Program-made: the position numbers and the translations under genes
Assembly (NCBI GenBank): GCA_045837725.1
Contig: JBEWZL010000041.1
Span: forward strand, 58,744-78,743
Source: Vermamoeba vermiformis
Lineage: Eukaryota
Direction: 5' to 3'
DNA: 20,000 nt
Shown: piece by piece, positions 1-17,680 of the stretch
How positions within the stretch are numbered: the first letter of the stretch is position 1
Layout: the number at the start of each line of letters is the position of its first letter
The notes under the pieces: model-generated
Told to the model about the DNA's origin: nothing
Databases searched by the model: none
The model's input: only the letters and a program-made list of their open reading frames with translations

Positions 1-1132
1 GTATCAAATCAAGACTGGATCTTACAACAATATTGTTCGTCATAACGTCTGCAAGAACACTACTGGTGTCTGCGTCTTGCTCTATGATGACTACGATCGT
101 GGAGTCAATCTCGTTGAAGGCAACGTTGTTTTGGGAGTTCAAAATGACAATGGCATTCAAGTGACTTCAGGCGTGATTGTTCGTAACAATGTTGTTATTG
201 GATGGAACGCAAGTAAGCAACAAAAAAAATTTGTTAGTTTAGTTGTTATTGTACTAATTCGTATTTGTTGCATCGCAGACGGTGTTGGTATTTATGTATC
301 TCTGAATCAAGTCAAAACAACGCCTCATCACGTCGTTGTTGAGCACAACACGATCTACGACACTAACGGATCCGGTCAAGATTGTTTGCGTGTTGCTTCG
401 CCGGCTAGTGCCGCAGGTTGGGTCATCTCAAACAATGCTCTTTATTGCCCTCAAGGAATTGCACTCGCTATTGAAGGAGGATCGTTAACGGGTACGCGCT
501 GAAATTCTAAATGAAATTTCCTCGAAACTAATTTTATTTTTAAGATGTTCCCGTTACAAACAACGCGTACTTGGGTAGCGTTCCTGCTCTCGATAGCTCG
601 AACTTTAAGTTGTCCGCTACTGTTGCTCAAGTCTTCGCTGACATCGTGAACAATAACGCCTATCCTGCTGTCGGATCCGCTCTTATCAAGGCTGGTGACT
701 CAACTCACTCGACTGAAACTGACTTCAATGGCTTGCCTCGTGGTAACCCTCCCACTGTGGGTGCATACGTATGTATCTCACTCTTATAAGATGATTACTA
801 AGTCTAACTCAATGCAGGAATTCTCGTCGAACACCAATCCTGGCTGGCAAGTCCAAGGAGGCTTTAAACAACTTGCCAATGGTACTGCGCCGCTCTCTGG
901 GTATACTCCTACTGGCTCGTCAAATGAACCTACTGCTTCGTCTAACAATCCTACCACTAGTGGTGCTCCTAACGGACCCAGTGCTGCTCCAAAAAGTTCT
1001 ACGAAAGTAACGGCTGGCGCTAACCAACTTCACTTCGGTACGTTGAAAAAAGTTAATACTACGTGACTGATTATAACTATTTCAGATTTTGCTTTATTAC
1101 TGGCTGTGGTCGTTGCTGTATTGTTCTATTAA
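1..1132 (+). CDS. Parallel beta-helix surface protein, copy 1 (5'-truncated by window); predicted GPI-anchored
   Basis: Exons <1-212, 279-491, 545-768, 818-1037, 1086-1132 join in frame through GT-AG introns. Product: YQIKTGSYNNIVRHNVC...DFNGLPRGNPPTVGAYEF...S/P/T-rich stalk...DFALLLAVVVAVLFY*. Repeated I/V-x-x-N beta-helix rungs. Intron positions match copies 2-4. Confidence 0.85.
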
Positions 1133-1454
1133 ATAGTAAGTTTTTGTGTTTAGATCGACATTTTGGATTTTGAATCATTACCGAACCATATTATGCACAA
1201 TGAATGTGGAGAATAGGCTACTAACATGTTATTTAACAGAATCTTAGCCTTTAGCCTTGATTTAATTAAATCGAAATCTTCGGTACGGATCAGATCTGCG
1301 TACTTACCAGTTACTGTCGCCGTTTCGACTATCGCTACAACGAACTCTTATTTATAAGGTATGTCTGTATGTGGATGCCGAAAATCTTTTGAACCACTGC
1401 AACCTTTATAAATGTCAAATCTCTCAGTAACTTCTGGCAACATGGTACAAAATG

Positions 1455-1474
1455 GGGACTGCAGTCCCGATTTG
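1455..1474 (+). promoter_or_regulatory. Candidate promoter element shared by beta-helix paralogues
   Basis: GCAGTCCCGATTTG at 1461-1474 recurs exactly at 3941-3954 before copy 3; CAGTCCCATTT at 6282-6292 precedes copy 4. In copy 2 it overlaps the perfect palindrome GGGACTGCAGTCCC (1455-1468). Function is inferred from position only. Confidence 0.4.
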
Positions 1475-1535
1475 AGCACAGAAAGGAGGGACTTTTTTGG
1501 TTAACGAAGTATTATTTACTTTTATTTCTCGCAAG

Positions 1536-3491
1536 ATGCAACAACTCGTGGCTATTGTATTCTGCGCTTTGGTGGCTTTTTCGGCTGCTGCGCCAAAAGA
1601 GATCCGCCCAACTGACACCAACCCTCCTTGGCTAACAACCCTCAGTGGCCTTCAAGCAGGCGATGTATTGACTGTTCACGAAGGCACATACACTCTCAAT
1701 GGAAAGTTCGCGGCTACTTGGACCGGAACTGAAACGAATCCAATCGTCGTTCAAGCAGCTTCAGGTGAAGGACGTCCAGTGTTCAAACAAACAACTCAAG
1801 AAAATATTTGGAACCTCAACGGTGCATACTTCACTGTCAAGGGTCTCGAGTTCACTGGTGGAAGTCGTGGTCTCCGTTTGGGCGAATCTTCGGGTAAGCA
1901 AACTAAATAAACTTTTCATAATCACTTTGCAATGATTAATCCGTCATTCGAAGTAACATAATTAACGTAATTTGATAGACACTTCGCATGTTGTGTTCGA
2001 TAGCATCTACATCCACGACATTAGTGCCAACGCTTTCAGCGCCAACGACTACAATAGAAATTACGAGAACATTACTTTGAGATACAGCGAGTTCAGCGGC
2101 ACAGGTAAATACTCCGTCATGCAATCCACGCTTTCCTGATTTATTCGTTAACCGACGAAATTTCAGCGGTAGAATTCCCATTTTAGTAATTTAAGTTTAT
2201 GATTTTACGGTGGCATGGATTAATGACACTTGAATATTAGCTGCAACTGGTGAATGCGTCTATTTGGGCTGCTCAAGCGATGGCTGCAGAACATTCAACT
2301 CGCTCGTTGAGTTCAACTACTGCCATGATACAACCACTGACGGAACTGGCTCCGCTGGATCTGGTTTCCAAATCAAGACCGGATCTCACAACAACATCGT
2401 CCGTAACAATGTCTGCAAGAACACTCCTGGTGTTTGCATCTTGCTCTATGACGACTATGATCGCGGAGTCAACCTCGTTGAAGGCAACGTTGTTTTGGGA
2501 GTTCAAAGCGACAACGGCATTCAAGTGACTGCTGGTGCTATTATTAGAAACAATCTTATCGTAGGCTGGAATTCCGGTAAGAAACAAAAATCAATACTTT
2601 TTCGCGATCCGCAGTTGTTGTTAACTCATATGTATTTTTTGTAGGTAGTGGAGGTATCTCTGTTATTAGTAACCAACCTATGAGCGGCAAAGGTCCTCGT
2701 AATGTCGTCATCGAACACAACACTATCTACGACAACAGATCCGGTCGCCAAGCCATTTATGCCAACTCTGTTGCTAGTGGTGAAGGCTGGGTCTTCTCTA
2801 ACAACGCTCTTTACTGCCCTCAAGGAAGCGCTTTAGTTATTTCCGGTGATTTGACTGGTAAGTCATGACTAAGTTAGTGTCGTAGATCTGACGTTCAAAT
2901 TAAAAGGTGTTCCCGTGACTAACAACGGTTACTTGGGCTCAATGGCCTCTACTGATAGCACGAACTTCCAATTGTCCTCCACCGTCGCTCAAGTCTTCGC
3001 TGATGCTGCGAACGACAACTTTTACCCCGCTGTCGGATCCGCTCTTATCAAGGCTGGTGACTCAACTCACTCGACCTCACTCGACTTCAATGGATTGCCT
3101 CGTGGTAACCCTCCCACTGTCGGCGCATACGTAAGTAAATCAGTCTTATATGATAATTACCAAGACTAACATAATGCAGGAATTCTCAACTGATACCAAT
3201 CCTGGTTGGTCGGTCCAAGGAGGCTTCAAACAGCTTGCTGCTGGCGCTAACCCTTCTAGCGGTAATAATGGCGGCTCACCCAACGGACCTACCTCTTCGT
3301 CGAACGGTCCTAGCTCTTCGTCAAACGGTCCTAACTCTTCTTCTCAAGGTCCCAGCGGTACTAAGACTTCCAGCGCTACTAATGTTCACTCCGGTACGTT
3401 CACTCGTTATTATGCCTTAGTACTCGTTATTAACCTCTTATTTTAAGGTGTCGCTTTGTTCGCCGTAGTCGGTGCCTATTTGTTATTTTAA
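1536..3491 (+). CDS. Parallel beta-helix (pectin lyase-like fold) surface protein, copy 2; 504 aa, signal peptide and GPI-like tail
   Basis: Exons 1536-1893, 1979-2104, 2241-2576, 2645-2857, 2907-3130, 3180-3393, 3448-3491 sum to 1515 nt with an open frame. Signal peptide MQQLVAIVFCALVAFSAA. Beta-helix cap LQAGDVLTVHEGTY and GTETNPIVV. C-terminus GVALFAVVGAYLLF*. Confidence 0.9.
3282..3356 (+). repeat. 21-bp coding tandem repeat (about 3.5 units) encoding the NGP[T/S/N]SSS stalk of copy 2
   Basis: aacggacctacctcttcgtcg / aacggtcctagctcttcgtca / aacggtcctaactcttcttct / caaggtcccagc. Confidence 0.85.
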
Positions 3492-4007
3492 ATTTACCAG
3501 GTGTATTTGATTAATAAAACTAGGTCTTGATTGCCTCGAGCAAACTTGATCTAGTTGCACAAATTTATGTTTCATGCTAGCACTAATCAGTACTACTCGT
3601 CGACATAGTATACACCGCTACGAAGAATGTAACCGAACTTGAGGTACGTACCCGTTACATTATTATTGCAAGCTTATTTCAATAATAATTCATATCAATA
3701 ATATAAGGTAAGGTTTTAATAACCGACAACCTTCTTGTCTTTTTCTTGCATAATTAAATTTTTTGATCTAATTTTTAATTTATCGGATGCACGGTTATTG
3801 ACCTGCACCACGCGAACATAATGGTCAATAAATAGTATTATAATTTGTTAGGTGGTTTCGTAATTAATATAATCTTCTAACGAGTAACTGACAGGAAGGA
3901 GAATCTTCAATGTGATTCCTAACAGTATCAGCACTGGGAGGCAGTCCCGATTTGCAGTAGAAAAACGGGTGTAATTTCCGTTCTTTTACATTTAATTTAC
4001 TCACGAA

Positions 4008-5960
4008 ATGCAACGCTTCGTGGCTATCGTACTCTGCGCTCTGGTGGCTTTTGCTGCTGCCACGCCAAAGGAGATCCATCCTACCGACACCAACCCGTCA
4101 TGGCGCTCAGTCCTTCAAAGTCTTCAAGCTGGCGACGTCGTTACGGTTCATGCAGGAACATATGTCTCATCGAGCAAGTTAAAGCTGGTGCTTGTAGGAA
4201 CAGAAACGAATCCGATCGTCATACAAGCGGCATCCGGAGAAGCTCGTCCAGTGTTCCAACAGACTTCTGGAGAAAACGTTATTGATATCGATGGCGTTTA
4301 CTTCATGATCAAGGGCCTTGAATTTACCGGCGGCAGTCGCGGAGTTCGTTTGGGCGAAGGAAGAGGTACGTGTCAGATCAACAAATCAAATTGCGCCAAT
4401 ATACGCGCTATTCAGTCAACCGCTGTTATGTTATAGATACTTGATGATCATAATACTAATTTGGTTAAAGACACTTCGCACGCCATCTTCGATAGTATCT
4501 CCATCCACGATATTGGTGCCAATGGGTTCAGCGCTAACGACCACGGTAGAAATTACGAGAACATTACTTTGAGATACAGCGAGATTAGTAAAACAGGTAT
4601 ATACATCTGTCAAGTCTCTTCGAAAGATTTTGTATTGGTTGTTTGATCCAACTGACCGGTTCTAACTTTAGCTGTGACCGGTGAATGCGTCTATATGGGC
4701 TGCCAAACTGATGGCTGCAGAACATTCAATTCTATCATTGAGTTCAACTACTGCCACGATACTACAACTGACGGTCACGGGTCAAAGGGATCAGGTTTCC
4801 AAATCAAGACCGGCTCTCACAACAACATCGTCCGAAACAACGTCTGCAAGAACACTCCTGGCGTTTGCATCTTGCTTTACGACGACTATGATCGTGGAGT
4901 CAATCTCGTCGAAGGCAACGTCGTGATTGGCGTTCAAAATGACAACGGCATTCAAGTGACTGCTGGTGTTATAATTAGGAACAATATTATCCTTGGTTGG
5001 GCTTCAGGTACGGTCACAACGTTCAAAGGACTTTTCTCGAGATTTCTCGTTCGTTCATGAATTTCGAACTGCCTTCAAAACTAATTTTATCATCTCCGGT
5101 TAGGATCCTTTGCTGGTCTTTACGCAATTAGCAACGAGCCTATGCCTGGCAAATCCCCTCGTAACATTACTGCCGAGCACAACACCATCTATAACGCTGC
5201 ATCCGGAAAGACTTGTTTGAGGATGGATAGCATTGATGCTGGTGAGAATTGGGTCGTTGCTAATAACGCCGTTTATTGCCCGAGCGGAACTGCATTTGCC
5301 GGTGATTTCAAAAGTAAGTTAGGATCCGATCGCTTTTGGATGCACCGTACTAAGTTCATCTTTAAGATGCTATTGTGAGCGAGAACGGCTACTTAGGCAC
5401 TGCTCCAACACTTGATAGCTCAAACTTCAAGTTGTCCGCTACTGTCGCTCAAGTCTTTGCTGATGCAGCCAACAACAACTTTTACCCTGCTGTCGGATCC
5501 GCTCTTATCAAGGCTGGCGATCCCACTCACTCGACCTCACTCGACTTCAACGGCTTGCCTCGTGGTAACCCTCCCACTGTCGGTGCATATGTATGTATTT
5601 TACTCTTATACGATGATTACTAAGACTAACATAATGCAGGAATTCTCGACGAACACCAACCCTGGTTGGCAAGTCCAACCCGGCATCAAAGGGCTCGCCA
5701 ATGGTGCTGCGCCACTCTCCAATACTATTACTCCTTCTGCCCCATCAGGCTCGTCTAACGGTCCTTCCTCGTCTGACAGCCCTAGCTCTTCTAATAGTCC
5801 CAACGGCTCCAACCCTCCTAGTTCCAGCCTGACTTCTGCCGCGACCACTGTTCACTTCGGTACGCGGAAATTTAATTTCTCTATTTTGAGTCCTTAAGTA
5901 CTAATTACGAGTAATTTAGGCGTTGCTACTGTCTTGTTGGCTGTATTATCATATATTTAA
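4008..5960 (+). CDS. Parallel beta-helix surface protein, copy 3; 504 aa, signal peptide and GPI-like tail
   Basis: Exons 4008-4365, 4471-4596, 4672-5007, 5104-5313, 5367-5590, 5640-5859, 5920-5960 sum to 1515 nt with an open frame. Same motifs as copy 2; ends GVATVLLAVLSYI*. Confidence 0.9.
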
Positions 5961-6334
5961 ATTTAATTAGATAGTAGTAATAAACCAGATCTCGTTCGCC
6001 TTTTAGGCAGAACAGATCCGGTTCAGAAGATTAGCCCGAGCCTGTATCCTACAGTGATTTCCTATAATTACCATCAGTTCATGGTTTGGGTAGGTCAAAC
6101 TTTGATTTGTGTCGCATAACGTCTTTTTCAGTACTGAATCATGATTATCCAGGCGACTTGACATATCGAATATATCTGTTAGGAGTATAGCGCAGGTAAA
6201 TTTTAATATAAACGCTTCTTTCTGACGCAGTTTTTCAAATTAGAATCTATGTGATTCTGTCCGGTTCCCGCGTCCTCAAATCAGTCCCATTTTATTATTT
6301 TTTTTTGGTAATTATTATTTTATTTGCCCGTAAG

Positions 6335-8209
6335 ATGCAACGACTCGTGGCTATTGTATTCTGCGCTTTGGTGGCTTTTTCGGCTGCTGCGCCAAAAGAC
6401 ATCCATCCAACTGACTCAGACTGGTTAGCAAAACTCAGTGGCCTTCAAGCAGGCGACGTATTGACCGTTCATGAAGGAACATATACTCTCAATGGAAAGT
6501 TCGCGGCTACTTGGACTGGAACTGAAACAAATCCGATCGTCGTTCAAGCAGCTTCAGGTGAAGGACGTCCAGTGTTCAATCAAACAACAGGAGAAAATAT
6601 TTGGAATCTCAACGGTGCCTATTTTGCGGTGAAGGGCATTGAATTTACAGGCGGAGGTCGTGGAGTCCGTTTGGGCGAAACTTCAGGTAATTTTGAATCA
6701 GAATCAAAAATAATCTGTATTGTTAGGAAAATAATTTTACTAAATTATCTAATTTAATTATGGCAGATACTTCGCATGTTGTGTTCGACAGCACGATATT
6801 GGTGCCAACGCTTTCAGCGCCAACGATGGCGGTAGAACCTACGAGAACATTACTTTGAGATACAGCGAGTTCAGTGGCACAAGTATGTAAAAAGCAACAA
6901 GAATTAATCGTGATTCGCCCTCGAGCGGAGTTTGGATGGAGAACTTTGACTGACTAATGAAATTTCAGAGCTTAGCGGTGAATGCGTCTATATGGGCTGT
7001 TCAGCCGATGGTTGCAGAACGTTCAATTCTATTGTCGAGTTCAACTACTGCCACGATACAACGACTGACGGATCTGGCTCAGGCGCATCTGGCTTCCAAA
7101 TCAAGACCGGATCTCACAATAACATCGTCCGCCATAACGTCTGCAAGAATATTCCTGGTGTTTGTGTGCTTCTCTACGACGACTATGATCGCGGAGTCAA
7201 TCTGATTGAAGGCAACGTTGCTTTGGGAACTCAAAGCGACAACGGCATTCAAGTGACTGCTGGTGCTATTGTTAGAAATAATCTTGTTATTGGCTGGGGC
7301 CCTAGTAAGCATTATTCAATTCTTTTTTCTTGATCCGGAAGTACATCCAACAAGTTTCTAACTTTGTTTTTATCGTTTCTAATCCCCTTAAATAGAGGCT
7401 GCTGGAATTTACATCTCTGTCAACTCGGTTACGACTAATCCTCGTAACATCGTAATGATCCACAATACGGTCTACAGTACCAACATGGCGGCCAGATGCT
7501 TAAATGTTGAAAGCAGTACGACCAACTCCGTGATCTCAAATAACGTTTTCTATTGCCCTGGTACTGCTGCGATTAACGGAGGCCCATTCAACAGTAAGTA
7601 GCGGCTCACGTCTTTCCGATGAAATTTCGAAGAAGAACTGATCCAATTTCGAAGGTGTTACCGTTACAAACAACGGTTACTTGGGATCTGTGCCTACTAT
7701 CCCCAGCTCAAACTTCTTATTATCCTCAACCATTGCTCAAGTCTTTGCTGATGCAGCCACCAACAACTTTTATCCTGCTGTTGCATCCGCTCTTATCAAG
7801 GCTGGCGATCCCACTCACTCGACTGAAACTGACTTCAACGGCTTGCCTCGTAACAACCCTCCCACTGTGGGTGCATACGTATGTATATCAATCTTATATG
7901 ATAATTACCAAGACTAACTCAATGTAGGAATTTACGATGGATACCAACCCTGGCTGGCAAGTCCAAGGAGGCTTCAAACAACTCGCCAATGGTGCTGCGC
8001 CACTCTCCGATACTATTACTCCTTCTGCTACGCCATCAGGCTCATCTAACGGTCCTTCAGCTTCTAACAGCCCTAGCGCGCGCACTTCTGGCGCTACAAC
8101 TTTCGGTTCGTTATTCTATCTTATTGTTATTTTGGTAATCTCATGCTAATGCCAATATATATTAGGTCTTGGTTCATTGGCTGTAGTTGCCCTCCTGGCA
8201 TTCTGCTAA
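6335..8209 (+). pseudogene. Parallel beta-helix surface protein, copy 4; frameshifted in exon 2 (probable recent pseudogene or sequence error)
   Basis: Exons 6335-6686, 6767-6882, 6969-7304, 7396-7593, 7655-7878, 7928-8105, 8166-8209. Exon 2 is 116 nt versus 126 nt in copies 2 and 3. Ten nt (atctacatcc in copy 2) are missing after 6792, giving TGA at 6856-6858. All other exons are open. Confidence 0.75.
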
Positions 8210-8455
8210 TTCGATCAAATAAACCTTGTCACGTGTTACTCTTTTGTTGACCGGTGGTTGCTATGTTGTTATTTTAATAATAGTAGTTATTAATAAACTG
8301 CAATTGTACGCTACCTTAACAAAGAGAGACTTGAATATCAAAAGCCCTTGTTGCGCCAAACCAAAAAAGGATCGCTAAATTTATTTCATTTATTTTTTCT
8401 CGCCAACCAAAAGCAACTAATGTTAATACATTTCTATATTAGTAACGCATAGATC

Positions 8456-10933
8456 ATGAGTTCTAAGTAAGTTTCAGACATAAACAAGCTCTGGAGGCTG
8501 ACAGAATTATTAATTCAGATCGAATGGAAGTCCGAAAGGAGCGGACAATGTCATCCGCCAAATGGAGCAAAAAATGAAGGAATATGAATCCGAATTTAAA
8601 TTCATTTTAGGTACGGGAGGGAAATTGATCTGGATCCGAGAAATTTTGACATAGATATTTTAGAAAAATTATTAATCGCATGATTATAATACTATATCCA
8701 TAAATAAACGTTATAGAACGGTTTTCTGACGTCTATAAATTATTTTGAATTTAGATTTTAATTTTCTATTTTCAGATCCAAAACCTTTCATCGCCAGATT
8801 GGATGGCAACCGATTCTCGAACTTTATGAAAGGCTTTCGTAAACCTAATGACTATAGAGGTACCAATACTCGCTTATTTAAGTCTTTATTTCATTCTGAC
8901 GCTAGTTTTAAGTGGATACCGCAATGATTTTGACTGCTCAAGACGCCATCATTAGATTTCATTGCGTATCAGCTTATGTTCAAACCGACGAGATATCTTT
9001 AGTAAGTTTTACATATTATAATGATTCAATTTGACTAACCACCAATTTTCTCGATCAGATCTTTCAGAAAAATGAAAACAATAAAGAGCGAGTTTTGCGC
9101 TTAGTCTCAATGATATCAGGCTATTGCAGCGTTAGGTAAGTCATATCGAGAATTATTTAAGATTCTGGATTAAAGTCCTTTATTTCCAAAATAGGTTCAA
9201 CTTCCATTTAGCGAGGCAACAATTTGATAGCGCGACTGAAAAAGACGTAAGATCATTTCATATAATATATAACGCTTATTTGATATATAAATAATCTAAT
9301 CATGTTAATAGCTCATCGAAAAAGTCAACAGCAATGTCGCTTTTTTTGACTGCCGGATCTTCACTTTGCCGACCGAACTTGACGTTACGGTAAGTCTAAC
9401 GATATAATAATATGCCACAATAGCTCATACTTGACGGTAGCAAAACATTTTCTTGCGAGCAGCCTATGCACGAAGAAACAGCAAGTCAGTTCTTGGTCGC
9501 GCAGTGCTCGGTCATCAAGCCATTCAAAATTTGCCCTCGGACCTTGTAAGTTTCTACGACAACTTTTTAAAGCTGCAAAATCATTGGAATTTCCTTTTTT
9601 GGATGATTTTTAAATACCGGAAGTTGTACTCAAAATAGAGCGAGTGGATTTTTTTTTGAACTTTTCGGAATTCAAACCGACTTGTTTATTGACCGCTTTA
9701 TTTATATTAGATTGCAAAAAGGATCCGAGAAGAAGAAGACGTGAATTGGGCTGATTTTGCACCGTTCTTCAAGTACGGCGTGGTCCTCAAACGACAGAAA
9801 AAAGCGAACAACACGTGCGTGATTAGCTCCGGTCAATTTTTGCTACTCAGCTCACAACTTTGCGGACAACGCGTGATGGACTTTGACAACAGAACGGACT
9901 TCACGGAACAAGAAGTTGTTGCGACAGTAATGGGCCACGACAGCAGCGATGTGCCTGTGGGCATGAGTCGATTGTTCACGACTATCAGCGACTTTGTGGC
10001 CATGACTCAGAGCATTGAAGAGGTAAGAGTACTTCACTTCACTCAACTTTGTAGGACACGTGTCAAAACGAAACATTTCGAGTTCTCTTGACACGTGTCA
10101 ATTTGACGTTAAGAAATTTCTTCGTGGTACTTGTCAACGACAGAAATTAACGGCCCTGCAGTGAACAGCAAAACAACTTTTCAGCGTTGCTGGCTGGCAG
10201 AAAATACACGTAAAGTACTAACGTCTTGTTTAGAAAGTGGAATCAAAGTACGGGCATCATTTCAAAGAGATTGAGCCAGAGCCTTACGAAGCCAAGTTAA
10301 ATCGCATCGATGAGTTCTTTGAAGGCATGGAACTCGAGCTCAAGAAAGACATCAATATGAATTCCCCGCCGCCAAAGAACAATAATAACAATTCGAAGAA
10401 TTCATTAAGCCCTGTTGCCTTAAACATTAATAGACCAGTGCCCATGCAATTAGAAAATACACAAATGATCGTTGAAGAGAATAGTTTGAACGTTCTTGAA
10501 TTGTGGCACGAAACTCCGAACGTCGTTCAAATCGCGCAAAATGAAATCTCCGAAGATAATCCGAAACAGATCATCGATAAATGGATCAGTTCGATTGGCC
10601 AATCTTCTTCGCAAATAAGTAAGGAAATTTTATAGCATATCTTATGACATAAGTTATTAATAACTTTATTAGGGATTGATACGGCAAGGTGGAACAATGG
10701 CGAAACAACTACGTTCATTACGAAGGTAAACGAAAAGAAATTTGATGTTGATAAATATTTGCCTAATTAGGAAATTTTCATAGGTCATTTTGCCAATTCG
10801 GCTGGACCCGTGTCTTGGCGTTAGTGGCGGTCTTGGTGAAAGTACGACGAGTGCCGATGAATCTTTGCAGCTTGCGTACAAAGACGCCGTGGATCTGCTC
10901 TTAGAGCAACATCTCATTCAAATTGTCCAGTAA
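8456..10933 (+). CDS. Thg1-like protein (TLP; tRNA-His guanylyltransferase / 3'-5' polymerase family) with a C-terminal extension containing a dsRBD-like domain; about 495 aa
   Basis: Twelve exons (8456-8466, 8519-8610, 8776-8859, 8913-9001, 9059-9135, 9195-9246, 9312-9389, 9441-9545, 9711-10022, 10234-10618, 10673-10725, 10784-10933) sum to 1488 nt with an open frame. Thg1-family motifs in order: MKEYE, ARLDGNRFSNF, RKPND, YVQTDEISL, AFFDCRIF, RRNS, VNWADFAPFFKYG. The HINNLY motif of true eukaryotic Thg1 is absent. The first micro-exon is the least certain. Confidence 0.88.
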
Positions 10934-11112
10934 TTGTAGCTGGTCAACTATTGTACCTAGAAGTGTATTATAAGCCTTGTACATTGTAAATTTTTGAATT
11001 TTTATTGAAACAGAAGAAATTGTTGCTGGTCTAGCATCATTAAAATGGAATTGGAATACAATATAAAAAAATAATAGAGTTAGTATTTAATGGTAATAGT
11101 ACAAAATATTTA

Positions 11113-12893
11113 TTATCCTTCGTTTGCCTCACGCTGCAACAAGACACGGATCGAGTTTGCGAGTTCGTTCTCAAAATCAACGTGAGCGCCTTTATACACG
11201 TCTTTGATTATGCCTTGCTTATTTAAGACGTATATCGTTGGATAAGAACGAACGTGGCACTTTGTAGCGAATTTTTTGGATCCGATCAGATTCGGATAAT
11301 TCAATTTCATATTATTTAGGACTATCATGGCGTCGCTTTGCTTAGTATCTGTATTTACGCCATAAACTACCAATTTTTCTTGCTGAATTTCGGTTTGAAA
11401 CTGATTGACGATAGCTTTCATGCTCGGCATCATTTTTATGCAATAAGAGCAATCTCGATGCCAAAAATCTAGTATAGCGACTTTACCTATATAATTGTAT
11501 TAATATAAATAATACTTGAATGCGGTATTAAAGTTAAAGGCTTACCAAGCAGATCGGCAGAATTTACGATTTTTTCTTTGTCTTCGAAGCAGTGTAATTG
11601 CCATGGCGCTAATTCCATATCTTTCGTTTCTATTATTTCTGCGAAATCCCATTTCATATGATCAATATTATCTTCGTGCATTTGAATAAATCCGTCGAGA
11701 ATTTCTTTGGTCAGATCCAACTCCAACTTGTTTTTTGTTGAAATTAATATCTCTTTGGCCTTATCGATCAAAGTCTGTACATTAATGCTTATTTTGTCCA
11801 ATTTGTTGCAAAACACTTCGTATTCTAATGTCGCATCCAGACAAAGTTGAAATTCTTTCTCGATCGCTAAACAAGTTTGCTCATCAATTGTTGTTATATC
11901 AATAAGCTTAGTTAATGACTCTTTAGTAGATGCTACTGGATATCCTTCGCTAATTTGGCTTGATATTTCGACGGGCAAGCATTGCTTCAAATCGAATCTG
12001 ATCTTTTGCGTACAAGTTCGTAAGTGGATCCGATCTATTGGGCCTTCAAACTATAGATATATTAGAATATATTTTATATATGATATTTATCGGATTCTTA
12101 CCCTCGATTCAAGCAATAAAATGTCTTGATCCGAACTTTTGAAAGTGTACACGAATTCTTTTTCCAAAAGAGTGTTTGTAACTTTCCCTTCCATTCTGTA
12201 TATTATATGCCTATATTAATACATACTTATAGGCTTAATTACTCAATTGTTAATGTTGTACTTACTCTGAGGTCGGATTCAGAGGCAATGCTGAAAAAAT
12301 TTCTTGTGGATCGAAGTCCGTACCCATTTTAGTGTTGTAAATTACTGCTCCGTCATCTTTTAAGTAGAAATATCCGATCTTTTGTCGCGGCTTGGTTTGT
12401 TCAATCAACTGGCCATTAATTATTGAGAAAATTCGATTGATCCTGCAGAGAACGATGAAAAATTAATATTTGAATACAAATAGTATTACTTAAATATACA
12501 AGTTCAATTTTGCGCTTCTATAATGAATTAGTCAAGCTTGATTACCTTCTAAACCAAATTTTGACTCGATCGGTCTCCTTTTGCGTGATCCAAAACGAAA
12601 TATCCGCGGTCCAAGCTGAGCTTTTATTGTTCTTATAATTAAGTCGACCTAGGAACCAAATAAAAGTTAGTTTGCGTGGAAGGAATTTCGCAATTTTCAA
12701 TAAATAGATTCATTTATTTGCTTTAAGGCTTTCATGGCTATTAATCATATGGCACAATGTAAATAATAAAAATAAAGACTATATTATTGTGCGCAGCGTA
12801 ATTTATAAGCGCTAAATGTTTGAAAGTACCTTCTTCACGGTAGATTAATACAGTGCCAGGCTTCAGCGTGTATTTTACGTGCGAAGTATTCAT
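11113..12893 (-). CDS. TlpA/ResA-like thioredoxin-fold (redoxin) protein with a long uncharacterised N-terminal region; about 438 aa
   Basis: Minus-strand exons 12893-12830, 12648-12546, 12442-12266, 12195-12102, 12050-11546, 11486-11113 sum to 1317 nt with an open frame. C-terminal domain GKVAILDFWHRDCSYCIKMMP...GVNTD...LNYP...VRSYPTIYVLNKQGII has CxxC and the cis-Pro loop. Confidence 0.85.
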
Positions 12894-13312: not shown

Positions 13313-16300
13313 ATGTCCAAAAAAGTCAATTTTAATAAGCTATTGGAACAATCCAAGCAGCTCACGACCCAGTTCCAAGATCAAGGATTCCTCATCCAAC
13401 GAAATATTGAACAGATCGATGAAGCTTCGAGGAATTTAGTTCAAAAAGTCAGCCAAGAAGAGAAAAAATCACATCCCAAAGCGTAAGTCCACAAATAAAA
13501 TAGAAAAATTTAAAAATTGAAGATCGCGCGCATTATTTTTTTCTGGTCTGTCTCCCTAATAATTCAATAAATAAATGTTTAAGTTATGCTAATAATATGT
13601 AAATAATTATAGTAATTTTATTGAGGCTGAAGGATCAGATTCAAAAAATATCAAGCGTTACTAATATTATTTTATTACAGACAAATACTATTGGCCCGCC
13701 AAGGCTTTGATACAGAAAAATTGACTCAGAATTTGAGTTCTATCGATTTAAAAACAACTTTTGAACCATTGGAATCGATCTCGGAGACCGATCTCGAAAG
13801 TTATTTGAAACATGAACACGAATTGATTGTATTGAGCGCTATTGAAGAGGCGAAGAAAGAGGTAATATTAATTATAACAAAAATATAATTATTGAATTTT
13901 TTCATTATTTTTAAAATTAATTTTTCGATCGGATCTCGATCTCCGTTACATGTCATTAGCGGACAACTAACACTCATATTATTTGTGTATATAGACTATT
14001 GAACAATATAACTCGAATTTTATCTCACGTATGGAAGATGAATGGGAAGAGAAAAAGCGCGAAATTATCGAAATGTTAACGCAGACTGGTCCTGCTTGGG
14101 AAGGCTTGCAAAAAACAAAAGAGAAGCCCAAAGGTACATAATATAGTGTATTATACTCTATACTACTATTACTTTCAATATAACTATAATGCAAATTGAT
14201 CTTTCGTTCAATAATTTTTTTCTATTTATTGTGCTGCAGTACCGATAATTTTATCAATTTTATTAACGGACTTTCCTAATTTAGTAAATTTCCAAACCTC
14301 AATGGACATGAAAATGCTGCACTACGCCAAGGTTATTTGCGACTTGAACAACTTTAGACTGCAAAAGAAACCTTTCGGCCTTGCTACCCGATTGCTAGAT
14401 GTCGCTAAAAATTTTGAAGATAAGAATATGGTACGTACAATATACTAGTCTCAATTGACTTAACGAGAATAATTTGGATCTTGAGATCTGGCACAGGATC
14501 CAAACTCGGTCAATTCATTTTAACTTTAATATTTGTTGCTCGGTTTATTACGGATTTTTAAAATCAATTTTACTAATTTGGTTGTTTTTTTTAGCAACGC
14601 AAATTGGAGTTGATTGACTGTTTTGATCTGCTGCGAAAAATGATCGGCGAAGGAGGTGTCTTGCCTGACGGTACTATTACGTAAGTACCACTTTCCAATA
14701 ATAGGAAATCATTATTATAGCAAAAATCGAACTTTTAACTGGCATATCGTGAAAAAAGTTTGCAAAAATTCATTTAACCATATTTGGCTATACAGACGAT
14801 CGCCGAGCCGCAACGAGCGAGATTTCGAGCAAGATTTGAAAGTTAATCCGAGTGAAGTGAAAAGATATTTCTTGAAAGGCGCACGTGACTTTTTGGAAGA
14901 GCAGTACAACAACATCATTCAGACCATGACCAAGAACAATCTGCAAAAGGCACAGCTCGGAGGTCGTCCGACTACGATTGCGTTCGTCAAGGGCTACTTG
15001 AACATATTGTTTAATATTCCTACACAGCCTTTCCCTGATGAATACGAGGTACTTGATCCCACATCCAAAATTTTTTCACGGACATTTTTTAAAACAAATT
15101 AACTCCTAAATATTATTTAATATCAATATATTACAATATATACTGCGCGCTTATATATTTTAATATTTAAGTAATACCATTGCAAATATTTTTTTGCCCA
15201 TTCGCATCTGACATTTTATTTCCTAATTTAGAAATCACCCGACGGTTATCCCATGTGGGCAGTGATCTACTATTGCATTCGTTGCGGAGATTTGAACGCA
15301 GCCATTCAATACGCCGCGTCAGTACCAGTGCTCGCGAACTTTGTGACCTACATGAAATCGTACACGGACAATCGCGACAGAAAATTGCCCGATCAGATTG
15401 CAGTGCAAATATTGCAAGAATACAGACAGTTGAGAAACGATCAAGATCCGTACAAATCGATCGTGTTCAATTTGCTTGGTCGTTGTGACGCCACCAAGTC
15501 GTACAACGCTATTAGACGATGGACGACACAAGATTTTATGTGGTTCAAGGTACGTAATATATATATAGAATAGAAACATAGGACCTTTTGCCATATTATT
15601 ATTTAACAAGGCCCAAAAAAACAATTAATTTCAAACAAAAAAAGTTTCACGGCAAATTTTTTCCCACCAATTTTATTGCATTTTTCTTCGTTCAGTGAAC
15701 GAATTTTTTCAGATAATCGACGAAATTTATTCCTTTCCTAAACAACGGAACACTTAGAGTGTTTATATCGTGCTCGGAGGTACTAATTAATCCTGCTATT
15801 CACAGCTGAATATGATCACGTCAGTCGAAGAAGTAGCCCCCGCAGTCTCAGTGCTGTCACTGCCGCGCCTTCAATCGTTGTTGCGCGAGTACGGCCCTGC
15901 TCACTTCAACAAGGACGGACAACATCCGCTGTTGTACTTCCAGATCTTGTTGTTGACGCAGCAATTTGAAGTTGTAAGTACAAATACACTTGCCTTAAAA
16001 GGAAATAGGACCAGAATCTTTTCCGAACCCAAAAAATATTGATCTGACCGTTGAAATTTATTTTGGTTTCCAAATAAGGAAATCTTGATACTTGATGGAG
16101 TAGTGCTAATTTGATGCTATTTTTAGGCCATTCAATACCTCGAAAGCACGGGTCAATTCTTCGTTGAAAATCTTCATTTCGCGCATTGCCTCTATTACTA
16201 CGGAATTTTGCGACAGCCGCCAACCGTTGCATCGCCTTGTAAGTCAACATTAATAGAATTGCCAAATAAGGAAATAATGTCCTAACTTCCGTCGTAGTGT

Positions 16301-17680
16301 TCGGTGAAAACAACAGATTGCCGTACTGCAACTTCATCAAGTTGTTGACGCAATACGTTAAGAGTTTTATGGTCACTGACTCACTTGCCGCACTGCACTA
16401 TTTGTTCCTTATTCAAGACGAGGCAATCAGGTAAGCTATTATGAGTTACCAAAAATGGAAATTTCCTCTTTAGGACTTAAACTATCCTGAGCTCAAAATT
16501 AACTTTTTTTCGTAGAAATCATGCTATTAAAGATCTCGTATTGACTACGGGAGATTTCGATACTTTGTTGGGCCGTACTCAGCCAGACGGATCTCGCGCT
16601 GAAGGTGATTTGGAGAAGTTTGTCAGCCGTGAACAATGGCAACATATTGTCGAATTGGCTGCAAATGACAGTGAAAACAACGGCAAATACGAAGAAGCGA
16701 TTAAACTCTATGACTTGTCGCAGGTTCGTATTGACTACATTTCCTTTTTTGGAAATTTTATGCCACGTGCTTTAACGTACCTGCCGGCTACTACCAGTGA
16801 TCCCTACATTCGGTCCTAATATCAATTATTATACAGCACTACGATAAGGTGATGTTGCTGATGAACAAGTGTTTGGGCCGCGTGTTGGTCTCCAGCGATG
16901 ATTTGAGCAATTTGGGCAACACCACAGCTCTCGAACGCAGCAAATTGATCGAGCTTTCAAATGTCCTCGTCGAGAAGTACAAACGTGAATTGGTATGTAT
17001 ATGATACGACTATTACTAAGACCGAAAATATTGGTACAAGATCCGGATCTGATCCAAAAAAAAATTTTCACAGGCGCGCCCAGAAATGATGAACAAGATT
17101 GACGAGCACAATATGATCACTTTTAAGCAACTCAAAGCTTTGTTAGCTTTCTTCGATTATTACAACAATGGCAGATACTACGAAGCCAGCGAGGTACGGA
17201 CAAAATATTATTTTTTATTTAGTAAATTTGCTAATTTTAATATTTTTATGCCATAGTTGATCAAGTCATTGAACATTATTCCTTTCAATACGAAAGAATT
17301 GGAAGATAAGGTCAATAACTTTAAGACATTGAGCGAGTCAATCAGACGAAACTTTGCAGAAATTTTGCTCGCAACGATGACTTGCCTATTTAAGATTTAT
17401 ACGAACGTCAAAGCTGAAGCCGCTGTTGATCCAAGCCGCGTTCAGGTAACAAAATATACCTTACTAAACAATCGTATAATATCACTCCGGTTAATTTTTA
17501 TTAAGACTGCCAGTCTTGAAACTATGATATGGTTATATATTAATTTTAATGCTATTATAGTTCTTGGAACGATTGAAGACTGAAGCACGAGCGTTGATCA
17601 TGTTTTCGGGCATGATCCAGTTCAGAATGCCCGGCGACACGCACTCCAAGTTGTTGCGCATGGAAGTTTATATGAATTAA
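13313..17680 (+). CDS. NUP93: Nuclear pore complex protein Nup93/Nic96
   Basis: About 15 exons join in frame. N-terminus FNKLLEQSKQL...QRNIEQIDEAS; internal FEPLE...TDLESYL and PMWAVIYYCIRCGD; C-terminus ARALIMFSGMIQFRMPGDTHSKLLRMEVYMN* is characteristic of Nup93. Confidence 0.95.

Follow-up and report, generated by a model that had tools for sequence, protein, structure and literature searches.

To our knowledge, no polymerases other than Thg1-like proteins (TLPs) extend nucleic acids in the 3'-5' direction, and their biological roles outside Dictyostelium are largely unknown. In the consulted part of one study, the KPND motif was described as confined to Thg1 and absolutely conserved there, and residue N46 was linked to the non-templated addition of G-1 (PMC12632743). 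According to the same text, DdiTLP2, with Arg, is the single exception among the Thg1/TLP enzymes studied to an Asp at the position of D150 of DdiThg1; the carboxylate of this Asp was described as a negative "gatekeeper", and any tested replacement in DdiThg1 raised adenylylation of a Watson-Crick substrate by 10-40-fold (PMC12632743). DdiTLP4, as presented in the consulted part of another study, is a cytosolic TLP that works on RNAs other than tRNA (PMC5041481). Here, a stretch of 20,000 nucleotides of Vermamoeba vermiformis DNA (GCA_045837725.1, contig JBEWZL010000041.1, positions 58,744 to 78,743 of the forward strand; hereafter the window) was analysed, in which a forward-strand gene at 8456-10933 encoded a TLP catalytic core followed by a long acidic tail.

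We propose, with a probability of about 0.6 for the explanation as a whole, that this protein combines an active, re-specified 3'-5' polymerase core with a tail that does not bind RNA and acts through proteins. The core would still activate the 5' end of an RNA and add template-paired nucleotides in the 3'-5' direction, as TLPs do in 5'-end repair. The tail is not expected to bind RNA because it was acidic in all three orthologs and gave no signal with the dsrm profile of double-stranded-RNA-binding domains (dsRBDs). More likely, it would recruit the enzyme to a partner or a membrane through an FFAT-like motif and the domain at its end. Instead of this, or in addition, the acidic tail may inhibit the enzyme by folding over the basic face with which it binds RNA, as the charge contrast of core and tail would allow. 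A cytosolic or nuclear role seemed more likely than mitochondrial tRNA editing because the N-terminus had no presequence-like stretch, and such a role would resemble that of Dictyostelium TLP4 on non-tRNA RNAs.

Polymerase core and active site

The core comprised residues 1-262 (8456-9908, introns included), was TLP-like from about residue 21 onwards, and was basic, with an isoelectric point (pI) of 9.3 and a net charge of +8; in the orthologs the charge was +8 or +9 at the same pI. The full-length ortholog P0001 matched PF04446 with 93.3 bits over residues 21-155 (gathering cut-off 29.2), and exon pieces from the window matched the same family with 25.7 and 15.6 bits (E 1.2e-5 and 0.015), each singly under the cut-off. 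The top match among solved structures was the Bacillus thuringiensis TLP (4kgk, E 5.7e-13), with query residues 21-225 aligned to residues 6-205 of the 245-residue chain, and Thg1 chains were matched at E ~1e-4 over residues 39-122 only. A scan of prokaryotic genomes revealed 365 TLP relatives, and none of the best 80 of these, at 26-35% identity, aligned past query residue 255; the core was therefore taken to end near residue 262, with the remainder of the protein as an extra part.

P0001 was aligned with 81 other TLPs, consisting of 76 loci translated from prokaryotic contigs and the proteins P0002-P0006, the origin of which was unstated; four of 80 TLP loci (L033, L037, L068, and L079) were dropped owing to in-frame stops. 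Seventeen columns were identical in all 81 other TLPs. P0001 kept 15 of them, including D44, D88, E89, R167, and N174, and deviated at S87, which was replaced by Thr, and at D170, which was replaced by Tyr. In a tree of the core with these TLPs, the query branch measured 2.93 changes per column, compared with a median of 0.24, and had no supported placement, so that no claim is made about a donor or horizontal transfer. A literature text search, limited in reach, returned nothing joining tRNAHis guanylyltransferase and TLPs to horizontal gene transfer. Between the window gene and its more distant ortholog L001, the core was the most constrained part of the protein, the proportion of nonsynonymous differences (pN) being 0.000 in exon 3, 0.038 in exon 8, and 0.042 at the end of the core. 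Judged from these comparisons, the protein is a member of the Thg1/TLP superfamily that is TLP-like, very divergent, and atypical.

The metal-binding carboxylates of the family were all present. Asp44 of RLDG (8802-8804), the first of them, was Asp in 81/81 other TLPs, and Asp88 and Glu89 of QTDEISL (8987-8992) were likewise Asp and Glu in 81/81; the residue before Asp88 was Thr in the window and Ser (S87) in all 81 others. RNA reads from a relative differed at the Asp88-Glu89 codons solely at the synonymous third positions 8989 and 8992. The loop formed by residues 57-60 (8841-8852) read KPND and was thus a KPxD loop of the Thg1 type with Asn at position 59, which was occupied by Phe in 50, Tyr in 30, Trp in one, and Asn in none of the 81 other TLPs. 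Tyr170 (9465-9467) stood at the gatekeeper position, equivalent to D150 of DdiThg1, in the helix R167-x-x-Y170-x-x-x-N174. This position was Asp in 81/81 other TLPs, and the flanking R167 and N174 were invariant. In the HMMER alignments of solved chains to the same profile, the position of Y170 held Asp or Glu in all five chains displayed, and the loop was KPND in the three Thg1 chains and KPFD or KPYD in the two TLP chains. The motif H-I-N-N-L-Y-N was restricted to Thg1 among these chains, and the window helix, R-A-A-Y-A-R-R-N-S, was of the TLP type.

The combination of KPND and Tyr170 was common to the window enzyme, P0001, and L001. Among the features that mark membership of the family, the metal carboxylates and the second half of the TLP-type helix were kept, and the aromatic residue or His at the X of KPxD and the Asp or Glu of the helix were not. 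As read from the alignments, the active site is a natural hybrid of a Thg1-type loop and a TLP-type helix without the gatekeeper Asp. Given the Tyr in place of the inhibitory gatekeeper carboxylate and the Thg1-type Asn in the KPxD loop, a change in substrate gating is probable.

Gene structure and acidic tail

The gene model, which was guided by P0001, contained 12 exons (8456-8466, 8519-8610, 8776-8859, 8913-9001, 9059-9135, 9195-9246, 9312-9389, 9441-9545, 9711-10022, 10234-10618, 10673-10725, and 10784-10933) and encoded 495 amino acids, with the stop codon at 10931-10933. All 11 introns were of the GT..AG type and 51-211 nt in length. The reading frame of exon 9 continued for about 75 codons beyond the TLP landmark NW...KYG and ended in TQSIEE|GTAAGA. 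Intron 9 (10023-10233), which at 211 nt was the longest of the gene and lay in phase 0, divided the core and the first tail segment from the remaining tail. It showed the donor GAG|GTAAGA, the sequence TACTAAC 17 nt upstream of the acceptor, and the acceptor TTTAG|AAA, and was followed by KVESKYG in phase 0. The original prediction had described this continuation of the frame past NW...KYG and across the intron correctly. Introns 10 (10619-10672) and 11 (10726-10783) were also GT..AG introns, and the peptides NPKQIIDKWISSIG (from 10558), IRIDTARW, TTFITKVILP, SGGLGES, and TSADESLQLAYKDAVDLLLEQHLI were present, spread over exons 10-12.

RNA data confirmed the splicing of intron 9. A 263-nt contig of run X7 joined 10020 to 10232 (shifting the cut by +2 gives 10022|10234), its shorter side being 82 nt, and six raw reads of run X12, clipped before 10246, carried ...ACTCAGTCTATTGAAGAG|AAAGTT..., in which TQSIEE was joined to KVE. 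With reads mapped to 8200-11300, joints matching introns 2, 3, 4, 5, 7, and 9 were visible in the reads or contigs. Runs X7 and X12 came from a relative that was 90-95% alike, the introns of which would not map, and are therefore silent on intron retention. No read of any RNA run fell within 10488-11300, and introns 10 and 11 rest on intron-free orthologs. Within 8572-8573, 8786-8992, 9320-9509, and 10254-10308, RNA reads bearing the same species label (three RNA-seq runs) differed from the window at many positions, mostly third-codon positions, at 90-95% likeness, so that several diverged lineages or gene copies seem to go under this label.

The orthologs led to the same gene model. P0001 (491 aa, from a 1585-nt contig, with PF04446) was the sole longer protein among 204 candidates in a search with exon 10, and it aligned over its full length with the protein encoded by the spliced window gene, with about 96% identity over residues 1-300, lower identity in the linker, and high identity at the end. 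Its 90% cluster contained eight members, namely four 491-aa proteins whose contigs measured 1550-1753 nt, one of 440 aa, and three genomic open reading frames of 123 aa. The 491-aa orthologs were taken to be intron-free because such contigs cannot fit about 1 kb of introns. The 123-aa genomic frames (P0012, on contigs up to 459 kb) ran from exon 9 on into intron 9, and the peptides read through this intron were unrelated among three species, as a true intron predicts. L001, which was the one confirmed among 400 pattern matches in a metagenome scan, was 63% identical in exon 10 and had the same 11-nt first exon, the same intron positions in the modelled parts, and the same tail; the L001 model covered the central part of the core only incompletely. 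The first exon consisted of ATG and 8 nt (8456-8466 in the window and 954-964 in L001), was conserved in L001, and was followed by an intron of 52-53 nt. The intron-free ortholog, which begins MSSK|SNGSPKG, is consistent with this micro-exon, the joint of which was not covered by reads. The region 8456-10933 is therefore one gene with a single transcript for core and tail, and the proposal of a fused gene held, with the spliced reads and contig, the intron-free 491-aa orthologs, and the structure of L001 in agreement.

The palindrome GACACGTGTC, which has a CACGTG core, occurred twice in exact form in intron 9 (10055-10064 and 10090-10099, no strand assigned). No further exact copies were found in the 20 kb, where 0.35 were expected when hits with one mismatch were included. 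Exactly two exact copies (2517-2526 and 2640-2649) were present in the orthologous intron of L001 and none elsewhere in the L001 sequence, and outside these copies the two introns were barely alignable. The copies paired with each other in minimum-free-energy folds, with z values of -1.1 in the window and -4.0 in L001. The pair could be an enhancer, an internal promoter, or an RNA stem.

The tail (residues 263-495, about 230 aa) had a net charge of -13 to -18 and a pI of 4.6-4.8 in all three orthologs. Its first segment (residues 263-300, 9909-10022, net charge -6) shared an exon with the end of the core, and a conserved block (residues 301-343, 10234-10362) followed intron 9. This block contained NRIDEFFEGMELELKKD, which was invariant in 4/4 aligned orthologs; L001 carried it with a single Leu-to-Val change. 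A variable linker rich in Pro, Asn, and Ser (residues 344-384, 10363-10485), to which the insertions and deletions among orthologs were confined, contained the invariant island NRPVPMQLE. The terminal domain of about 110 aa (residues 385-495, 10486-10933 across introns 10 and 11) had a net charge of -8 and a pI of 4.5. Between the window and L001, synonymous sites were near saturation, with proportions of synonymous differences (pS) of 0.57-0.84, and pN in the tail segments was 0.10-0.26. The values were 0.136 against 0.573 in the first segment, 0.105 against 0.84 in the conserved block, and 0.128 against 0.638 in exon 12. Because pN was far under pS in every tail segment, the tail is maintained as a protein under purifying selection.

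Relatives of the tail were confined to the orthologs. An exhaustive HMMER scan with the last 191 residues against 1.84 billion representatives returned five proteins, four of which were exon fragments of orthologs. Word-indexed searches with the tail gave nothing beyond P0001, the ESM Atlas gave no usable match for residues 385-491 or 263-491, and the window contained no tail paralog. P0010, a Thr/Gly/Ser-rich bacterial repeat protein of 1534 aa that matched the tail at E 1.8e-14 in eight weak stretches with 29% identity, was rejected as an artefact of repeats and composition. The tail thus appears to be private to a small eukaryotic clade, the architecture having been seen solely in a handful of close relatives. 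The architecture, which the original prediction could not place among described TLPs, was supported: sequence searches gave close relatives only, and the best 80 of the 365 prokaryotic relatives stopped by residue 255.

Terminal domain, FFAT-like block, and rival readings

The terminal domain probably follows the order beta-beta-alpha1(PKQIIDKWISSIG)-beta(IDTARW)-beta(TTFITKVIL)-loop(LDPCLGVSGGLGES)-alpha2(ADESLQLAYKDAVDLLLEQ), as suggested by low-confidence models. AlphaFold2 gave a mean predicted local distance difference test (pLDDT) score of 31.5 for full-length P0001 with an alignment of eight rows and of 38.0 for the 191-aa tail with an alignment of five rows. Both models contained the helix PKHVIEKWIAS, two strands (IDTARW and TYITKVIL), and a long last helix, with two short strands ahead of them, and a third strand was not predicted. 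A Foldseek search of the model with pLDDT 38.0 against PDB gave no match at E<=0.001; the best match had E 0.19, and the sole dsRBD listed was at rank 35 with E 1.1, the model being too poor to inform.

The original prediction had assigned this end of the protein to a dsRBD or Dicer-dimerisation module. A conserved extra C-terminal module was indeed found, but no profile signal identified it as either domain. Pfam searches of window exons 9, 10, and 12 detected neither PF00035, PF03368, nor any other family in the tail at E<=1, and in full-length P0001 PF04446 was the only family at E<=10, with neither PF00035 nor PF03368. A profile of the tail had no match among solved-structure sequences at E<=10. 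The terminal domain was also compared with 34 RNase III dsRBDs, a reference set from bacterial genomes only, which degenerate eukaryotic protein-binding dsRBDs could escape. Alignment with hhalign gave a probability of 0.2% (E 0.3) over 10 columns of helix 1 only. A dsrm hidden Markov model (HMM) built from the 34 domains scored one of the three terminal domains, at -2.2 bits, a value reached by 298 of 500 shuffles, and left the other two unscored.

The composition of the domain also differed from that of dsRBDs. Canonical dsRBDs contact RNA through a His in loop 2 and a Lys-Lys pair that opens helix 2. The 34-domain alignment showed GP.H and S[KR][KR].AE, whereas loop 2 of the three orthologs read NNGETTT, TEGGLNT, and SQGGKIT and helix 2 started with SADES, SADES, and SEEES. 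The net charge of the terminal domain was -5 to -8, compared with -2 to +5 (mean +1.1) in the 34 dsRBDs. The earlier caveat that an acidic ADES replaces the KKxA RNA-contact motif was correct, these positions being acidic in all three orthologs. A dsRBD-like topology of the domain is possible on the predicted models, and an RNA-binding role is unlikely on the residues present. Retargeting of the enzyme to duplex RNA is argued against because the RNA-contact positions are acidic and the domain carries a net charge of -5 to -8. The idea that the module steers reverse polymerisation to duplex RNA or small-RNA pathways thus lost its basis, and the present evidence does not link reverse polymerisation to double-stranded RNA or to small-RNA pathways.

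The conserved block of the tail contained an FFAT-like core, EFFEGME (residues 327-333, 10312-10332), which was preceded by Asp to give DEFFEGME. The conventional FFAT core is given in the consulted part of PMC8306308 as EFFDAxE with an acidic flank, with Asp or Glu accepted at position 4. Of the six positions that EFFDAxE specifies, EFFEGME agreed at five, position 4 being Glu instead of Asp. All seven sequences covering the site matched the pattern [DE]FF[DE][AGSCT]x[DE], as did 24 of 200,000 shuffled tails. Tethering to VAP at the endoplasmic reticulum through this motif is a lead to which we would give about one chance in four.

Several points weigh against an active core with a protein-binding tail. 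The changes S87T, K106R, W166L, and D170Y fell on near-invariant positions, and because of these alterations and the branch length of 2.93 against a median of 0.24, catalysis may possibly have been lost or changed. In the FFAT-like core, Gly replaced Ala at position 5, and the upstream flank EAKLNRID offered one adjacent Asp together with Lys and Arg, and no acidic tract. FFAT motifs bind in an extended form, and the low-confidence AlphaFold2 model made this block helical. The low confidence of the models also leaves room for a dsRBD-like fold, and the dsRBD comparison set consisted of bacterial RNase III only. Autoinhibition was deduced purely from charge, and localisation from reading the N-terminus only. 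If the core had no polymerase activity, the protein would be a scaffold or an RNA-end-binding factor working through its tail. The four changed positions, including a universally conserved Asp, and the very long branch are in line with this, but the three metal ligands, K57, R167, and N174 were all kept, the core was the most constrained part between the window and L001, and a non-carboxylate at D150 raised rather than abolished the activity of DdiThg1 in the consulted part of PMC12632743; a pseudo-enzyme is thus improbable. It is also unlikely, though slightly less so, that the protein is a neofunctionalised TLP in which KPND would have arisen by convergence and loss of the gatekeeper would admit 5' ends that ordinary TLPs reject, perhaps with non-templated addition; such an enzyme, tied to a membrane or a partner complex by a private tail made of an FFAT-like VAP ligand and a new end domain, would carry out spatially targeted editing or repair of the 5' ends of non-tRNA RNAs, or would be a lineage-specific replacement of Thg1.

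The other alternatives concern the tail. A degenerate alpha-beta-beta-beta-alpha, dsRBD-like fold without RNA binding would make the terminal domain a module for protein binding or dimerisation, comparable to the Dicer dimerisation domain or to those dsRBDs of Dicer partners that do not bind RNA. The order of helix, two strands, Gly-rich loop, and long helix in the low-confidence models, the only local hhalign alignment, which matched the first helix to that of dsRBDs in the register expected, the G-x-G-x-S read from the sequence ahead of the last helix, and an acidic surface suited to protein binding all speak for it. It remains doubtful because statistical signal was lacking (0.2% over 10 columns with hhalign, an HMM score equal to shuffles, and neither PF00035 nor PF03368), no third strand was predicted, and two extra strands stood before helix 1 in a domain of about 110 aa, compared with about 66 aa in a dsRBD. 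That the domain is a working dsRNA-binding domain guiding reverse polymerisation to duplex or small-RNA substrates is very unlikely: the resemblance of motifs is only loose, and TLPs are able to act on non-tRNA RNAs (PMC5041481, consulted in part), but all three canonical RNA-contact regions were without basic or His residues, and neither the net charge of -5 to -8 (-2 to +5 in dsRBDs) nor any sequence or profile signal agreed with it. Two genes joined in error, namely a TLP gene that stops within intron 9 and a small gene downstream of it that begins with the Met of EGMELE, would be compatible with the length of intron 9, the longest of the gene, with an in-frame ATG at 10327, and with the two conserved CACGTG-core palindromes, which could be promoter elements. 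This reading is extremely improbable and largely refuted already by the spliced junction in RNA reads and a contig, by the four intron-free 491-aa open reading frames, by the failure to find a stand-alone tail homolog among the 1.84 billion representatives, and by the conservation as coding sequence of KVESKYGHHFK, which lies upstream of the EGMELE Met. The preferred explanation is still a re-specified, active polymerase core with a tail acting through proteins.

Neighbouring genes and known systems

The gene was flanked on its upstream side by a forward-strand tandem array (1-8210) made up of three complete paralogs and a partial one, each coding for a secreted protein with a signal-peptide-like start, a body of the right-handed beta-helix or chondroitinase-B-like type (pieces matched PF13229 at E 0.001 and PF14592 at E 2.4e-5), and a tail rich in Ser, Thr, and Pro that ends in a hydrophobic stretch. 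On the other side lay a convergent gene of the thioredoxin fold on the reverse strand (11113-11499; AhpC/TSA E 5.5e-11, Thioredoxin_8 E 9.2e-10), which contained a C-x-x-C-like site, WHRDCSYC, and was separated at its 3' end from the stop codon of the TLP gene by about 180 nt. Further downstream, the forward strand carried exons of a Nup93/Nic96 nucleoporin gene (14644-16819; PF04097, up to E 7.4e-28), one of which scored 82 bits with human Nup93 and 38-56 bits with fungal Nic96 (yeast Nic96 56). An Rfam scan of 8300-11100 at E<=1 and a tRNA scan of the window gave nothing.

No TLP with an appended domain or C-terminal extension was described in the texts reached by the literature search, and a 2019 review (PMC6471195) made no mention of a C-terminal, fusion, fused, or additional domain. 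The dsRBD (PF00035) and the Dicer dimerisation domain (PF03368) may share with the terminal domain a similar order of elements and a Gly-rich turn before the last helix, as the models suggest, but the window domain is acidic, is about 110 instead of about 66 aa long, and showed no sequence, profile, or structural relatedness to them. EFFEGME resembles the FFAT motifs that are ligands of VAP/MSP domains at five of six specified positions and was invariant in all orthologs, and it differs from them in the Gly for Ala at position 5 and in a flank that is not an acidic tract. The FFAT-like block, the NRPVPMQLE island, and the end domain offer handles on the partners and the place of action of the enzyme.

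Compared with bacterial and archaeal TLPs (B. thuringiensis 4kgk and Methanosarcina 5axk), the window protein has the PF04446 fold family, the metal ligands, and the helix ending in R-N-S in common, and by analogy it would be expected to activate 5' ends and then add nucleotides in a template-dependent manner in the 3'-5' direction. Unlike them, it is about twice as long, with an acidic tail of 230 aa not seen in the best 80 of 365 matches, has KPND instead of KP[FYW]D and Tyr instead of the invariant Asp or Glu, and is 26-36% identical to them, with a very long branch and 11 spliceosomal introns. The eukaryotic Thg1 proteins (3otb, 3wbz, 5xox, and 7cv1) share the KPND loop with the window protein, which was a far weaker match to them (E ~1e-4, N-terminal half) and had neither H-I-N-N-L-Y-N nor the gatekeeper Asp. 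The Pfam model of the Thg1 C-terminal domain, which we take to be PF14413, had no match in P0001 at E<=10.

The closest precedents for re-specified eukaryotic TLPs are DdiTLP2 and DdiTLP4, which were compared by description only, and no such tail is described in the consulted parts of these sources. DdiTLP2 is, like the window enzyme, a natural enzyme without the conserved Asp, and has a changed specificity (PMC12632743, consulted in part). It has Arg at this position, unlike the Tyr of the window enzyme, and, by its description in the same text, its KPxD loop is degenerate, whereas that of the window enzyme is intact and Thg1-like. If it serves in targeting or regulation, the acidic tail would be the first such module seen appended to a Thg1/TLP protein in the texts and sequences searched. 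The presence of KPND together with the loss of the gatekeeper in a natural TLP bears on how Thg1 evolved the non-templated addition of G-1 from a templated ancestor, the question raised in the consulted part of PMC12632743.

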